From Octopus vulgaris (taxonomy: Eukaryota): 64,000 nt of DNA. Of the stretch, positions 7,444-28,364 are shown piece by piece. The position numbers were made by a program, and so were the translations under genes. Location: contig OX597826.1 in assembly GCA_951406725.2 (NCBI GenBank), forward strand, positions 22,134,001 through 22,198,000, in the 5' to 3' direction. The stretch's first letter is position 1, and every line of letters begins with the position of its first letter. Below the pieces are notes generated by a model that was given only the letters and a program-made list of their open reading frames with translations, did no database searches and had not been told where the DNA came from.

Positions 7444-7531
7444 ATGCAGCTGAAGATTGCTCTGCATTTAATTTAATATAATGACTGCATTGTTCAATTA
7501 AATGGAGTTGCTTGAAATGATCGTACTGCAT
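7444..7531 (+). ncRNA. Type I hammerhead ribozyme motif (degenerate helix II base)
   Basis: atgcag-CTGAAGA-long stem (catttaatt/aattaaatg)-GAAA-tgatcg-TA-ctgcat; helix I atgcag/ctgcat is perfect. Confidence 0.7.
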
Positions 7532-7556
7532 TACCTCTGGATATATATATATATAT

Positions 7557-10500
7557 CAAGTAAGATCTTCATTAATTCTGATAAGACAAGGAACTTATAT
7601 GCACTTGATAAGGACGTTTACAAGCATCTAATTTCGAATAGTATCACAGACACATACAAAAAAGATAACACAAATATATACAAAGAGGTGAATTTGGAAA
7701 CAAGGAGAATAGCTAACAATCTTAAGAGTAGTGATAGGATAGAATATCTTTCCCCACGACCAGCTTTTATTACACTAAAAGACCATAAAGCCAATTTTAA
7801 TAGAAACCCCAAATGTAGATTGATAAATCCGGCTAAAACTGAGATAGGCATTATTAGCAAATATATTTTGGACTGTATCTTAACTAAGTTAGATAGTGAA
7901 TTAGATTTGAGAATTTGGAAGAATAGTAAGTCAGTTATAGAGTGGTTTAAAGGGATTAGCTATAAGCATAATTGCAGTTTTACGCAGTTCGATATTATTG
8001 ACTTTTACCTGTCAATATCTAGGGCTTTACTCCTAAGGGCATTGGACTTCGCCAAGTAGTATGTCGACATCAGTAGCTCGGAAATTGATATCATCATACA
8101 TGCGAGGAAATCACTTCTTTTTTTCGAGGATTCCACCTGGATTAAGAAGGGTGAGGTTTCTCTTTTCGATGTACCGATGGGGGCATACGACGGGGCTGAG
8201 TTATATATGCTTATAGGAGCCTTTATTCTTCATAATCTAAAAATAGAATTCCCATTTATAGATGCAGGTTTATATAGGGATGACGGCCTTATAGCCACCC
8301 ATAATTTAAACGGCCATGAATCAGATAGACTTAGGAAGGACCTTATTGCTTTCTTCCAAAGGATGGGCTTACGGGTTACAATAGATACTAACCTGAAAAG
8401 TGTAGATTTTTTAGATGTAAATTTTAATATAAGGTCGAATAGATCTAAACCTTACCGTAAGCCCAATGACAAGCTATCATATATTAGCAAAGATTCGAAC
8501 CATCTGCCAGTTGTCCTTAGGAACTTAGTCAGCAATGTAGGTAGAAGAATATCATCAATTTCTTCGGATGAGTCAGCATTCCATAATGGTGCACCTTATT
8601 ACGATAGCACCTTAAGGAATAGTGGATTCTCTGATAAGATCCAGTACAACCAGCTTAATGCTGGTAGTAATGCTGCGCACAGAATTAGGACCAGGAAAGT
8701 TTTGTGGTTCAACCCAGCTTTCAATTTGGCCGTAAAAACTAACATAGGTAGGGAATTCTTGAAATTAGTCATTTTAGGCATTTTAAGCAGGACCATAAAT
8801 TCTATAGAATATTTAATAGAAGAACCCTTAAGATTAGCTTTTCTTGTTGCAGAAATTTTGCCTCTTACATTAGCCAGCACAATAGGAATTTAATTGATAT
8901 TAAGCATGGTGCCGATCCCATTAAGAAAAGCAATTGTAAAGAGGAATGTTTGGTAAAAGGGGTCGTTTATAGAGCCAAGGCGCAAATAGAAGGCTCATCG
9001 GAATACAAGACCTAAACAGGGGCTTCAGAAAATTCGTTTAAAATGCGATTTTATTCGCATAAAAATTCATTTAGATACCCAGAAAATAGGAAGAAGACCA
9101 GCCTAGCAAAATATGTTTGGGAACTAAAAGAAAAGGAAGCCCCATCTTTCAACGTGACATGGAGCATTCTGGATAGAGCGGCACCATACAGGCACGGGGC
9201 ACACAAGAAAAATTTTAAATGCAATCTTTGTTTGTTAAAAAATTTTTATATTTTATTCAAAGACAATAATTCTTTGAATCAAAGAAGCGAAATTTTGAAC
9301 TCATGCAGGCACGCAACCAAATTCAAAATGTCAAACATAAATATCCCATATGGATAGCGTATATTTTGTCTTTTTGAATTTTGATTCTTGGACTAGTCTT
9401 TAATCACACCGATGGATTTGTTTCGCGCTATGCAGATTTCATTCCGCATAGCAAAATCTTGTGCATATATTTTGCTTATATTTCTACATATTCCTTAGGA
9501 AAAACCTTCGACTTTGTTTATTTCATTCTATTATATTGTATAGGCTTACTTTGGTATTTAATTTATAGATAATCCAATATAGGGTGTTATACTTTGCATG
9601 TCTTTCATCTAATTCTTATTATTATGCACTCACCATTTTTAAAAAACAATGTTGTCAGATCTTAGGCATTTTTATGTAAATATGTGTATTGGCATGAATA
9701 TGTATTTGTAAGCATACGTCTTTGTATATGTGTAAGTAAGCGTATGTTTGTACTTAAGCACATACATACACGAATGTATGTGTATGCATGTATCCACTTG
9801 GGCGTGTGTGTTTGCATACTTGTCTCTATATATGTGTCAGTATATGTGCTCACATAATTTTTCTTCTTTCCTTTCCTTCTTTTTCCCTTCTCTCTTTTTC
9901 TTTTTTCTCTCTCTTCCTTTCTTTCGTTTTTTTCTCTCCCTATTCGTTACTTGTATAGAGCCCTGTAACTTTACGTCCCCCTCCCCCTCCCTTACTTATG
10001 TCTTTAGCTTTATGTTGTAAATAAGAACGCCCCTTCCCCATCCATGAATTTAGCTTATAGTCTATATGGATACAGTGATTTTGCATGCGAGCTAGATTGC
10101 GTATACATATGCGTACATGCATATGTGTGTATATTTTAGTTTTGTATTTATATGTCTGTATATGTATGTGGTCTGCGCACATCTATCTGTGTATGTTGAT
10201 GTATATATGTATAGTTTAGTATGAGTATGTACTGTTGTGTAATATTTTAATGCATTTTAATATTTTAATTTCAATTTCCATGTATTAATTATATTTTCTT
10301 TATTAATGACAGTATGTATGTATTCGATGTAAGGTTTTTTCCTCGACTTTTATAATTTTATATATATATATATTTTTTTTTGAGTTCATTTTTGTTTATC
10401 GCTCGAAATTGACCGTTATTTGAAAGGACCAATCAAACAAGTCCATTTTTAAAGGTGTAGCATTTATACTAGTCTTGATAGAATTGTCATATCGGTTCTA

Positions 10501-19930: not shown

Positions 19931-19945
19931 TATATATATATATAT

Positions 19946-22212
19946 ACGTTTATATATTTGTTGTGCAAGATTTTTTATGTGAAGTCGTGTGTTGAAACAG
20001 ATATTGTTATATTTCGGAATGGTCATTTTGCCAGTTTAGCCAATAAAAACACATGCACTATATATTTGGTGTTATTTTGCTTCAGTGTTATTTAGTTTTT
20101 ATATTAATCTTAATCTTATTTCGGCCACAGTTCTTTCGTCACACTCCTGTGACCGCATCAGTGGTCCTTTGTTTTCTTCTTTCTTATTCGTGTCCTTACT
20201 AACCGTCAGCCATTTTGTATTTCTATTGTATGTCTTCATTTGCGCATGCTTATATCTCTATGTGCGTCTATGTTTATTTAGTGTGTGGGGGGGATGCCTG
20301 TAATATTTGTATCTTCTGTTTATATACGTTCATGTAATTTGTTTTTGTTGTTGTTGATTTTGTTTAATCTTATTTTGTTCATGTGTTTACATCCACTTAT
20401 TATTATCATTACATATGCTTGTATGTATAACAACAATACTAGTAATAATAATAATAAATCAAAACAAAAAAAAACTTATAGTTATTTATTTCTATTTGTT
20501 TATTTATCTGTGTATTTATTATGTTTTCGGGATCCTCTACCGTCATATATGCCCAGGATGAGGGGGTAGCCATCGGCGTTAGTATTGCTGGTAATGTGGC
20601 CAACCTTTTCATGGTATGGTGGGACAGAAGGCTTAAAGAATGCCTAACACAGAACTCCATACTCGTAAACAGGTACTCTCGCTATGTTGATGATATCAAC
20701 ATAGTGGTAAAGGCACCCCCACAAGAGAGTACTGTTGATATAGTAATAGAAACTAATACTATGGAGAGCATCCAGCAAATAGCTAACTCCATCCACCGGA
20801 GTATTAAGGTCACAATAGACTACCCCACTAAACACCCCAACCATAGACTACCATTACTAGACACTGAACTCTGGCTAGAAATTGTGAATAATAAAACCCA
20901 AATCCTTCATTCGTACTATGCCAAACCTATGGCCTCAAAATACTTGATCCACCGGAACTCAGCCATTGCGGACAATGCCAAATTCAATATTTTGATGGCA
21001 GACCTCGTCAGAATAATGAGAAATGTGTCACGCATGTGCGAGCCTACAGAGACACATACAATATTTTATTCACCGCATGCAGTTCTCAGGTAACAGCCAT
21101 AAAGAAAGGATCAGAGTATACAAAGGAGCCATGAAGAAATTTGATAATATATTATGTAATGATAGGAATGGGATTTGCCCACTCTATAGGAACAAGTCAT
21201 GGAACACTATAGAAAGGACAAAAAAGAAAATAGGGAAGGCCAACTCTTGGTATGATAGCCATAAATACCAGAGTGTCATGTTCGTTGACACCACCCCTGG
21301 AGGTGAACTGGCGTACCGCTTTAGAAGGACCCTAGACAAACTTAAGCTAAGGATTAAGGTTGTTGAAAAGCCAGACAACCCTATCAAATCTATAATTGGT
21401 AGAACCTATCCTTTTCGTAGAACCTCCTGTACGGATAAGTACTGTACTGTATGTAGATTTAGCCCACAAACAAACTGTAAAGCCAGAAATGTAGTCTATA
21501 GTATAAGATGTATAGAGGGGCGATGCAGTAACAAGACAACGACATACGTAGGGGAAACAGCAAGAAGCATAGGAGAGCGGGTGAACGACATTGGAGAGAA
21601 CTCAAGGAAGGTAAAAGCTCATCGATTCTGTACCAACACGCCAAACAGGAACACGGGGGATCAATCAACAACATAGAAATTAAAATATTGTCCACACATA
21701 GAACAGATGCAACAATCAGACAAATTACAGAAGCTACACACATAATAGAAAATAAACCTAGCCTGAATAGGAAACTAGAATGATTTTGATTTATTATTAT
21801 TATTACTAGTATTGTTGTTATACATACAAGCATATGTAATGATAATAAGTGGATGTAAACACATGAACAAAATAAGAATAAACAAAAACAACAACAACAA
21901 AAACAAATTACATGAACGTATATAAACAGAAGATACAAATATTACAGGCATCCCCCCCACACACACTAAATAAACATAGACGCACATAGAGATATAAGCA
22001 TGCGCAAATGAAGACATACAATAGAAATACAAAATGGCTGACGGTTAGTAAGGAGAGACACAAATAAGAAAGAAGAAAACAAAGGACCACTGATGCGGTC
22101 ACAGGAGTGTGACGAAAGAACTAAGATTAAGATTAATATAAAAAATAAATAACACTGAAGCAAAATAACACCAAATATATAGTGCGTGTGTTTTTATTGG
22201 CTAAACTGGCAA
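19946..22212 (+). mobile_element. Penelope-like element (probably Neptune-type) with inverted pseudo-LTRs
   Basis: RT GVAIG..ANLFMVWWD, RYVDD, LPLLD, YYAKP; GIY-YIG NVVYSIRC..YVGETARS preceded by a Cys linker; ~430-bp inverted repeat 20028-20464 vs 21784-22212; (TA)n flanks. Confidence 0.9.
22083..22122 (+). ncRNA. Variant hammerhead-like motif in pLTR (fuller inverse copy at ~20123-20168, minus)
   Basis: ggacca-CTGATGCG-gtcac-aggagt-gtgac-GAAA-gaact; the minus copy continues g-tggcc to close helix I; core is non-canonical. Confidence 0.5.
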
Positions 22213-22221
22213 TATATATAT

Positions 22222-24609: not shown

Positions 24610-24704
24610 TCATATAATTAAGGGCTAAAGAGGGTTATTCTAAAGCCAATACACTGATTTATCCACTTATAATCCACTTGTTACAGGAAAATATATATAT
24701 ATGT

Positions 24705-25114
24705 AGGCGCAGGAGTGGCTGTGTGGTAAGTAGCTTGCTAACCAACCACATGGTTCCGGGTTCAATCCCACTGCGTGACATCTTGGGCAAGTGTCTTCTG
24801 CTATAGCCTTGGGCCGACCAAAGCCTTGTGAGTGGATTTGGTAGACGGAAACTGAAAGAAGCCTGTCGTATATATGTATATATATGTGTATGTGTGTGTA
24901 TATGTTTGTCTGTGTTTGTCCTTCTAGCATTGCCTGACAACCGATGCTGGTGTGTTTACGTCCCCGTTACTTAGCGGTTCGGCAAAAGTGACCGATAGAA
25001 TAAGTACTGGGCTTACAAAGAATAAGTTCTGGGCTCGATTTGCTCGACTAAAGGCGGTGCTCCAGCATGGCTGCAGTCAAATGATTGAAACAAGTAAAAG
25101 AGTAAAAGAGAGAG
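24705..25114 (+). mobile_element. Full-length tRNA-derived SINE with internal (TA/TG)n
   Basis: tggctgtgtggtaa A box, ggttcaatcc B box, gtaaaaga tail; inverse copy at 27803-28348. Confidence 0.88.
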
Positions 25115-25361
25115 TATATATATATATATATATATATATTAGTCAATTTAGGGTAGCAAAAAAATTCAATAGAAATTTATCGCTACCAGCGGCCTGGTGG
25201 AAAAGAGAAAATAGTCAACGACTAAATATATAAATATAACAATTTAGGAGTGACCCTAACAGGTCATTCGTCCACCAGAAAGAGCAGCCATAACTCACAC
25301 CGCCAAGTAGTAGTAATTCAGAAATTAGGTGAAAATTTAAAAACATTTACCCTAATTCATC

Positions 25362-25459
25362 TTTTAGACGTTGCAACGTTTCTGTGTCATTAATGATTAA
25401 ATTAGCTTAATTAAATTAAATTAAGCTAATCTACCATAGGTTACACTTCATCAGTAAAA
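25362..25459 (-). ncRNA. Type I hammerhead ribozyme, unit 1
   Basis: tttta-CTGATGA-agtgt..acaca-GAAA-cgttgcaacg-TC-taaaa; canonical core with GUC site. Confidence 0.85.
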
Positions 25460-25835
25460 AACCTGGGAGAGACAAATATACACGAGGCGTCTGTATCGAT
25501 GCCTACGGAATATCTGTCTTAAAATTTTCAAGACTGACGTATTCGCGCCAAACTTATCAGCAGTAAATATAAACTGCCGATTCAATCTCAGAATTATTCA
25601 GAAAATTATCAATTAGTCAATTTAGGGTAGCAAAAAAATTCAATAGAAATTTATCGCTACCAGCGGCCTGGTGGAAAAGAGAAAATAGTCAACGACTAAA
25701 TATATAAATATAACAATTTAGGAGTGACCCTAACAGGTCATTCGTCCACCAGAAAGAGCAGCCATAACTCACACCGCCAAGTAGTAGTAATTCAGAAATT
25801 AGGTGAAAATTTAAAAACATTTACCCTAATTCATC

Positions 25836-25933
25836 TTTTAGACGTTGCAACGTTTCTGTGTCATTAATGATTAAATTAGCTTAATTAAATTAAATTAAGC
25901 TAATCTACCATAGGTTACACTTCATCAGTAAAA
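25836..25933 (-). ncRNA. Type I hammerhead ribozyme, unit 2
   Basis: Same motif exactly 474 bp from unit 1. Confidence 0.85.
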
Positions 25934-26358
25934 AACCTGGGAGAGACAAATATACACGAGGCGTCTGTATCGATGCCTACGGAATATCTGTCTTAAAATT
26001 TTCAAGACTGACGTATTCGCGCCAAACTTATCAGCAGTAAATATAAAGAGTTATGGCTGCTCTTTCTGGTGGACGAATGACCTGTTAGGGTCACTCCTAA
26101 ATTGTTATATTTATATATTTAGTCGTTGACTATTTTCTCTTTTCCACCAGGCCGCTGGTAGCGATAAATTTCTATTGAATTTTTTTGCTACCCTAAATTG
26201 ACTAATTGATAATTTTCTGAATAATTCTGAGATTGAATCGGCAGTTTATATTTACTGCTGATAAGTTTGGCGCGAATACGTCAGTCTTGAAAATTTTAAG
26301 ACAGATATTCCGTAGGCATCAATACAGACGCCTCGTGTATATTTGTCTCTCCCAGGTT

Positions 26359-26456
26359 TTTTACTGATGAAGTGTAACCTATGGTAGATTAGCTTAATTT
26401 AATTTAATTAAGCTAATTTAATCATTAATGACACAGAAACGTTGCAACGTCTAAAA
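26359..26456 (+). ncRNA. Type I hammerhead ribozyme, inverted unit
   Basis: CTGATGA at 26364-26370, GAAA at 26436-26439, palindromic helix III at 26440-26449, TC at 26450-26451. Confidence 0.85.
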
Positions 26457-27328
26457 GATGAATTAGGGTAAATGTTTTTAAATTTTCACCTAATTTCTGA
26501 ATTACTACTACTTGGCGGTGTGAGTTATGGCTGCTCTTTCTGGTGGACGAATGACCTGTTAGGGTCACTCCTAAATTGTTATATATATATATATATATAC
26601 ATACACACACACACACATTCCCAAATATATACACAGCCCAAACATACTAATATGTATCAACAAACTGTTACACAAATAAATTCTAAAACAAAAATGAAAA
26701 TAGTTACAGGTACGCTGAGACATAAACCATACAAACGAATATAATCGTACGATATGAAAATGAAGGTATAACATCGAGTGATGTTATACAGACACACACA
26801 AATAAGCATACATATACACATAATTACACTGGAAGTTAATCAAAGGGAAGGCAGTGATAAGGAACTGTGTGATTCCTTGTCTTGGTTGTTGGGGTAGGGG
26901 AGAGAAACAAGGGAAGATAAATACAAAAACTGATATCACTCTCTCTCTCTCTCTCTCTCTTCAATCAACTTAATTGTGATGATGAGAATTTCATTTAACT
27001 GGAATATTTCTACATTTCAAACATTTCACTATTTTAATTAGAAAATGAAATGTGCATGCATGTTTATGTGCATATCCTTGTTTGGATAACAATTGGTATT
27101 GTTGTGTCCTGTAACTTAGAAGTTTGCCAAATAGAGATTAAGTGCCACATTGAGATTAAGTGCCATCAATATAATGGATTAAACTCTTGAAATACAGAGC
27201 TCCTGCTTGGGCTCACTCCAAACACTGAAACCAATTAAAGGATGTAAAAAAATACCAGAAGGTAATAAACAAATTCTAAAACTAAATGGCCTTTCAATTT
27301 CCAGCCAAAACTATATTAAAATACTTAC

Positions 27329-27359
27329 TAGACAGCTGATGGAACCTTGTCTGCTGATC
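27329..27359 (-). CDS. 31-nt host gene exon (probably GSADKVPSAV)
   Basis: Long U tract plus cacag acceptor; TA|gtaagt donor; phase 1-2 fits neighbours. Confidence 0.62.
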
Positions 27360-27729
27360 CTGTGTGAAAAAATAAATAAAATAAAACAAAATAAAAAAGT
27401 AAAAGTACATTAGCCATTCTAAACAAATTAATGTAATGGTCTCAATATAACCAATAAATAACACAGTAATGAGTAAGCAGGTAGAATTTTCATATAAGTG
27501 CTTTAAATCCACATCAACTGGTAGACAGTTGCAGACAGCTTCAACTGTCTGACCTATCCTCCCATTCAACTCTTCTACCAATTAGAAGTATTTTCTGTGC
27601 CTTTCTGAGTGTTACTGACAGGTTTTGAAAATAGTCCTTATTTAACTTTTATTAAAATTCTTACTTAGCTACTTTAACATTTCAATTAATTTTGAACAGT
27701 AATAATTCCTATAATTTAGTAGCTTTTTC

Positions 27730-27776
<47 letters not shown>

Positions 27777-27802
27777 CACAATTTTGTTGATAAAGATCAT
27801 TG

Positions 27803-28144
27803 TCTCTTTTACTCGTTTCAGTCATTTAAATATGGCCATACTGGAGCACTACCTTTAGCCAAACAAATCGACCCCAGGATTTATTCTTTGTAAGCCTAGT
27901 ACTTATTCCATTGGTCTCTTTTGCCAAACCACTAATTTACAGGGATGTAAACACACCAGCATCAGTTGTCAAACAATGGTGGGGGGACAAACACAGACAC
28001 ACAAACATACACACTCATACACATATATGTATATATGATGTATATATATATATATATGTCTGTGTGTGTGTGTGTATATATATATGTGTGTGTATATATA
28101 TATATATGTGTGTATATATATATATGTGTGTGTATATATATATA

Positions 28145-28190
<46 letters not shown>

Positions 28191-28348
28191 GATTCTTTCA
28201 GTTTCTGTCTACCAAATCCACTCACAAGGCTTTGGTCGGCCCAAGGCAATAGTAGAAGACACTTGCCCAAGGTGCCACACAGTGGGACTGAGCCAGGACC
28301 CCTGTGGTTGGTAAGCAAGCTACTTACCACACAGCCACTTCTGCACCT
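27803..28348 (-). mobile_element. tRNA-derived SINE with expanded internal microsatellite
   Basis: Reverse complement of the 24705-25114 family. Confidence 0.85.
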
Positions 28349-28364
28349 ATCTGTCTACAAAGAC

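Follow-up and report, generated by a model that had tools for sequence, protein, structure and literature searches.

The non-coding repeat described here, which has a unit of 474 bp, carries a hammerhead ribozyme motif and is inserted in (TA)n, is in our view probably a non-autonomous retrozyme, whose unit-length and probably circular RNA would be reverse-transcribed from both ends of a cut target by a borrowed Penelope-type reverse transcriptase (RT)-endonuclease. The window (i.e. the whole stretch of 64,000 nucleotides that was analysed) holds one of about 100 loci of this young non-coding family, which probably adds a new member to the animal retrozymes already known. In its testable features the element resembles a metazoan non-LTR retrozyme, and its footprint is of the Penelope type; each copy probably preserves a single circular RNA, in some cases edited, that was copied by an enzyme of the Penelope kind. 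The proposed chain of events would begin with the probable transcription of tandem copies, presumably by Pol II, which we infer because the sense strand contains T6–T7 runs. The hammerheads, predicted to dimerize via a palindromic helix III, would excise a 474-nt monomer, which may then be ligated to a circle. The enzyme, a predicted dimer in the case of another Penelope-like element (PLE), would cut both strands of the TA tract, and one cut end would prime cDNA synthesis at a site A, the other at a site B, each a fixed distance behind a shared 9-nt motif. Both cDNAs would run round one RNA molecule for 0.1 to 14 turns and their ends would eventually be joined, yielding diverging arms that share one haplotype and, likely, A-to-I edits. 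The features of the window locus are as follows.

25115–25137, no strand: left (TA)n target tract.
25138–26047, minus strand: left arm of 1.92 identical units, with its 3' end at site A (unit position 474) and its 5' end at unit position 39.
25138–25152, minus strand: site A, comprising the motif CCTAAATTG and a 15-nt register to the (TA)n junction; putative RT start site.
25359–25462, minus strand: hammerhead 1, with CUGAUGA at 25454, GAAA at 25382 and C17 at 25367.
25367–25840, minus strand: 474-nt monomer predicted from the sequence, between two predicted cut sites.
25833–25936, minus strand: hammerhead 2, with CUGAUGA at 25928 and C17 at 25841.
26047–26048, no strand: inversion point, where the 5' ends of the arms abut without gap or overlap.
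26048–26584, plus strand: right arm of 1.13 units, with its 5' end at unit position 316, its 3' end at site B and a substitution at 26321.
26356–26459, plus strand: hammerhead 3, with CUGAUGA at 26364, a hairpin at 26388–26417, GAAA at 26436, the palindrome at 26439–26450 and C17 at 26451.
26570–26584, plus strand: site B, comprising the second CCTAAATTG motif and the (TA)n junction in the identical 15-nt register; putative RT start site.
26585–26599, no strand: right (TA)n target tract.

This layout agrees with the first-pass annotation, which had described a unit present about 1.9 times in tandem and then about 1.1 times inverted, between (TA)n tracts and with one substitution between copies. 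The tandem part has a period of 474 with 100% matches, its two units showing zero mismatches over 25138–25573, and the sole substitution distinguishing the inverted part from both tandem copies is that at 26321; both flanks are indeed (TA)n. The first-pass annotation had left unmentioned that the ribozyme of the tandem part is encoded by the minus strand and that of the inverted part by the plus strand, so that the two arms point away from each other, each with its 3' end next to a TA tract. The GC content of the unit is 160/474 (34%), and the longest stop-free stretch in the six frames of the circularized unit encodes 55 amino acids, in keeping with the earlier statement that the unit contains no convincing ORF. 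The left TA tract is adjoined by an abundant SINE-like repeat (window 24700–25110; presumably of the octopus type), of which an inverted copy is found at 27797–28349.

A DNA search of the genome (2.8 Gb), with the top 39 of 1589 candidates scored, gave 225 matches at 96–100% identity, as expected from the previous suggestion that the element is young, and a search for copy number, likewise proposed before, found 217 exact occurrences of a 28-nt ribozyme piece, 215 of which were placed. We examined 104 loci, 39 chosen by similarity, 51 by an exact end and 14 by the ribozyme alone; L072 (83% identity) falls under the filter of the two-armed end analysis and is left out of the end counts. Two sister families, both older than the window family, were also recognized. 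Family 2 (L176–L204) has a 471-bp unit that is 70–80% identical and possesses two ends as in the window family, while family 3 (L205–L234) is about 68–75% identical and variable at the base of helix II.

Each unit had been predicted to carry a type I hammerhead with a palindromic helix III and a long helix II hairpin, and a hand check recovered three complete motifs in the window, consisting of an 8-bp helix I, CUGAUGA, a 65-nt helix II region, GAAA, a 12-nt palindromic helix III and GUC. The first 39 loci contain 137 full motifs, one in every tandem unit, with a nearly invariant core. Helix III occurs in two linked states (83 versus 54 copies) that differ by a double change, each of them a perfect palindrome. 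Across 16 motifs of the three families, which are about 70–78% identical, pairing in helices I and III amounts to 97.7% (26–48% in slid controls), and six of the 11 pairs are changed on both sides, a value matched by none of 500 shuffles; relatedness inflates such counts, and the changes here are several and separate. Covariation was counted for helices I and III, and helix II was judged by eye. These data support the notion that the hammerhead is real and has been kept by compensatory change across families. The Infernal-type search suggested in the first-pass annotation, run with Rfam on the window, returned no hammerhead match at the gathering score or even at E≤10, likely owing to the long helix II, so it is by hand check and covariation that the motif is identified.

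The palindromic helix III has a predicted energy of −0.9 kcal/mol as a hairpin and −17.9 as a duplex, which favours the dimeric form of the ribozyme, a form described in the accessible text of PMC4209133. The hammerhead fold (−25.3) is predicted to be less stable than the MFE structure of the identical stretch (−28.8), and the unit as a whole is strongly self-paired (fold z −6.5, both as a circle and as a linear strand). The base of helix II shows an A-A step followed by a G-C pair in 136 of the 137 copies and also in one motif of family 3 (L224), whereas sister family 2 has a flush G-C there; the core-flush pair G10.1-C11.1 is absent from the window family. The mismatch noted previously is present, but the earlier caveat that it may lower activity should be modified, since a state fixed in 136 of 137 copies and recurring in a sister family is the family state and no sign of decay. 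On one view, the A-A step consists of the extra base known to occur after A9 and of a further A inserted ahead of G12; the family represents a natural hammerhead variant with such a step at helix II, and a 5x5 internal loop located 4 bp from the core could be a candidate for the loop 1–loop 2 tertiary contact. We considered whether arm 5' ends at the predicted cut site prove cleavage: six such ends are observed against 1.4 expected, but other hotspots are equally strong (3-nt windows elsewhere also reach 3–6), and the argument was dropped. Both arms of L115 stop at the predicted cut site, as do three boundaries in family 2. According to the literature accessible to us, one of nine dimers of Xenopus retrozymes was cleaved in vitro.

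The divergence among 188 units amounts to 0.27% within loci as opposed to 1.78% between loci, and shared variants are fixed in a locus in 233 cases versus 31 in which they are partial. Twenty-five locus-private variants are fixed in all units covering them, most of them across the inversion (one in L038 occurs in 9/9 units), the 27 multi-unit loci represent 20 haplotypes, and the cut-site seam is intact in 210 of 213 segments. This pattern indirectly supports a unit-length, probably circular, RNA template, a circle likely being the simplest form that a single-unit template could take; a circular intermediate has been proposed in PMC4209133 and PMC7229834, as far as their accessible parts go. 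A single-haplotype contig of 504 nt (474+30) in the run X18 is as compatible with a tandem transcript as with a circle.

An unlikely, albeit by no means far-fetched, alternative is that the template was an uncut linear multimer transcribed from a homogeneous source array, with priming from both cut ends as outlined above, an incidental hammerhead and no need for a circle. Seamless cut sites fit an uncut multimer too, the one haplotype common to seven loci is equally explained by a linear source array, and the hammerhead of the Poseidon element PAc of Anolis is dispensable for insertion in vitro, mutants having no effect in the experiments described in the accessible part of PMC11167929. However, copying of a linear multimer offers no way for a new change to become fixed in all units, so the number of haplotypes and of private fixed variants makes repeated passage through one repeatedly copied unit likely, and the ribozyme appears to be kept by compensatory change across families. 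The two sides meet in a 28-unit two-armed locus near a contig end (G000:C28:279.3–292.4 kb; L249, L117), which is not homogeneous: at unit position 185, the nine inner units have A and the outer 8–10 of either arm have G, as if a two-block source had been copied, but the other variants of this locus are not mirrored between the arms.

The private changes may also tell something about the fate of the template RNA. Twelve of the 25 fixed ones are A>G on the sense strand and four are T>C (P 0.008 per site), compared with two A>G among 89 single-unit changes, and nine of the 12 A>G sites are preceded by a 5' U, the preference of ADAR, as opposed to 49 of 132 in the unit. Both arms of L109 carry four private A>G changes, and one of the arms has a fifth in its two units. 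Counted by locus the excess is 6 versus 4, two loci supplying eight of the 12 sites, so the signal rests on these two loci. In X19, a run of presumed RNA, A>G is the sole kind of difference between two contig ends and the unit (5/5 differences in the sense part and 5/5 in the antisense part), and these ends match none of the examined loci; provided that the presumption is right, this fits read-through of a two-armed locus, formation of a long hairpin and editing. L061 was considered as the source of the contig and rejected, as its inversion junction is close but its haplotype differs at three sites. Such folding back would mask the ribozyme, so productive transcripts would probably start inside an array or come from one-armed loci. 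None of the runs holding the unit is recorded as RNA, the unique flank at 26620–27700 has no cover in four runs guessed to be RNA, and summed contig depths are unable to rank expression; cover and depths were both left out of the argument.

Carried further, and here we are tentative, holding the idea slightly less probable than its opposite, each two-armed locus would be a fossil of one circular RNA, with the halves of a Penelope RT dimer starting obligately at two different motif-marked sites, rolling round the circle from the two ends of the cut target and copying its ADAR edits into all units on either side of the inversion. If this is true, both the circular intermediate of animal retrozymes and RNA editing as a source of their heritable change are directly documented in the genome.

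The arms have two fixed 3' ends, A at unit position 474 and B at about 378, which are 96 nt apart, the predicted cut site being at position 245. Exact ends were found genome-wide 47 times for A and 49 times for B (control 0), and the junctions of both types were verified against TA. All 59 two-armed loci diverge, and 54 of them combine A with B, none A with A or B with B, and five have one other end, an excess of A+B over a free choice of ends with P 5.6e-17. Seven further two-armed loci picked by the ribozyme alone are all diverging and A+B, bringing the total to 61 of 66, none with two ends alike and five with one other end; a tail is present on exactly one arm in 61/61 loci with two standard ends, and seven one-armed loci bear a tiny stub of the complementary end type. 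At both sites the junction lies 15 nt after the start of the shared 9-nt motif CCTAAATTG. In family 2 the motif reads CCTTATATT at both ends and both junctions are 16 nt on, i.e. the end motif co-varies at the two sites and the register is equal at A and B; of its 15 two-armed loci, nine are A+B, one is A+A (L187) and five are A plus another end. A correlation between arm lengths (rho 0.46) proved to be a selection effect, as rho is −0.10 inside one sampling set (25 loci).

For rotifer Penelope elements, palindromic junctions have led to the proposal that a single arm is made from RNA and that the inverted one arises from it by fold-back or self-priming (PMC3846280, accessible text); for the window family we consider this very unlikely. 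Such a route would account for the identical haplotypes, and arms start within 2 nt of each other at eight of 56 junctions where about one is expected, but at least two of these eight are due to an internal hairpin. Moreover, neither arm is consistently the longer one (B in 15 of 54 loci, A in 39), and the arms of L069, L076, L084 and L091 share no sequence and cannot have copied each other, which contradicts fold-back as a general route. At L118 (6370–6500) the junction is filled by a 16-nt fragment of the unit repeated seven times, which suggests that the joining step slipped repeatedly.

An inverted, 5'-truncated head-to-head copy, a tail on one end and a microsatellite target are all features of the Penelope footprint and are all present here; the target is (TA)n, inside which any target duplication is unreadable. 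The first-pass annotation had regarded the element as mobilized by Penelope, and the footprint is indeed of this type, but an autonomous partner was not found among the PLE ends compared: the suggested search for an autonomous PLE sharing the terminal repeat, made with the top candidates, found none. Seven PLE 3' regions and 30 loci of the PLE family represented at window 19945–22215 showed no homology to the unit, nor did hits of a pattern search for short-helix hammerheads, and the 60 loci of the two sister families yielded no autonomous partner. That PLE, which we take to be Neptune-like, is 5'-truncated (RT E 1e-4, weak GIY-YIG, CX4CxxC linker), is accompanied by a partial copy in inverted orientation, is flanked by TA and has a one-sided tail, and its hammerhead core reads CUGAUGCG instead of CUGAUGA. 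Its family, autonomous and unrelated to the repeat, has frames up to about 1300 amino acids and one long and one short end in 6/6 two-end loci. A broken second PLE-like RT region, presumably Naiad-like, lies at window 7502–9400 and gave no Pfam match.

The notion that the arrays are merely remnants of the pLTRs of an autonomous Penelope element whose terminal repeat is identical is highly improbable in the light of the loci themselves. All features of the footprint are PLE-like (accessible part of PMC8557442), and Xenopus retrozymes derive from pLTRs, as the accessible literature has it. However, with 215 of the 217 exact ribozyme copies placed, none of the 104 loci examined has a Penelope ORF joined upstream (PLE fragments in some stretches are separate from the arrays), which bears out the earlier view of the element as non-autonomous; head-to-tail units join directly, up to 14 times, and the two sister families are free of ORFs within 1.5 kb at their 60 loci. 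Expansion of a satellite through unequal crossing-over and an artefact of the assembly (named earlier as a potential refutation) are practically negligible explanations, for although tandem and inverted repeats are difficult to assemble and no run contig spans the window locus, the family is dispersed across at least 25 large contigs with fixed 3' and varied 5' ends, locus-specific haplotypes are common to both sides of the inversion and the unit is present in 20 public runs from nine studies under four organism labels; as a class, the loci are no artefact.

The preferred reading, a non-autonomous retrozyme copied by a borrowed Penelope-type enzyme, can be compared with known systems, our statements on which refer to the accessible parts of the cited papers. 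The retrozyme class and its link to Penelope are already published (PMC7229834; 10.64898/2026.07.22.740005). The window family resembles the metazoan non-LTR retrozymes of these papers in its non-coding tandem unit with one type I hammerhead, strong self-pairing and a GC content below 45%, and a circular intermediate and mobilization by PLEs have been proposed for them as well. Its unit is longer than the 170–400 nt of PMC7229834 but inside the 51–972 range of 10.64898/2026.07.22.740005, and it differs in the 65-nt helix II region, the 12-nt palindromic helix III and the fixed ends of its two diverging arms in (TA)n; the words ‘inverted’ and ‘octopus’ are absent from the main text of PMC7229834. 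PAc, in turn, has two internal RT start sites that bound a tail, and both strands were extended in vitro (PMC11167929). It is like the window family in these two start sites, AT-rich targets, cutting and extension of both strands and a predicted dimer, but it is autonomous, PLE tails being 30–40 nt as opposed to 96 nt in the ORF-free window family, and the in vitro data accessible for PAc reveal no start-site difference between strands, whereas here each insertion uses each site once. The window family also differs from EN+ Penelope-like elements (PMC8557442, PMC3846280, PMC4209133) in having no ORF for RT plus GIY-YIG, and the PLE tail, described as ‘often at one end’ or optional (PMC8557442, PMC3846280), is on exactly one arm in all 61 loci that have two standard ends.

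Twin priming of L1 elements, in which both target strands prime cDNA on one RNA and the 5' part becomes inverted, provides another comparison; in the window family, the start sites are fixed behind a repeated motif, and the arms can overlap and span many units. We found no description of the family or of a strict one-site-per-arm rule in the literature searched, subscription papers, Repbase/Dfam and bioRxiv supplements being outside its scope and possibly cataloguing the family, and no report of edits fixed in retrozyme arrays among the literature listings. What the family adds is the A+B count, the co-varying end motif and a likely editing record, and it bears on how retrozymes and Penelope elements build tandem and inverted insertions. 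The footprint offers three cheap tests (one start site per arm, one haplotype across the inversion, A>G in all units), and the repeated 9-nt motif with its fixed register is a compact cis-element for finding out what Penelope enzymes recognize. Hammerhead-bearing repeats of other kinds were encountered, too: 13 of the 25 matches L120–L144 belong to a further non-coding family of short units, which has a minimal hammerhead and a site-A-like 3' end running into (TA)n, and a short TA-flanked element with a minimal hammerhead-like motif (L065:4571–4680) lies directly upstream of an array of the window family.
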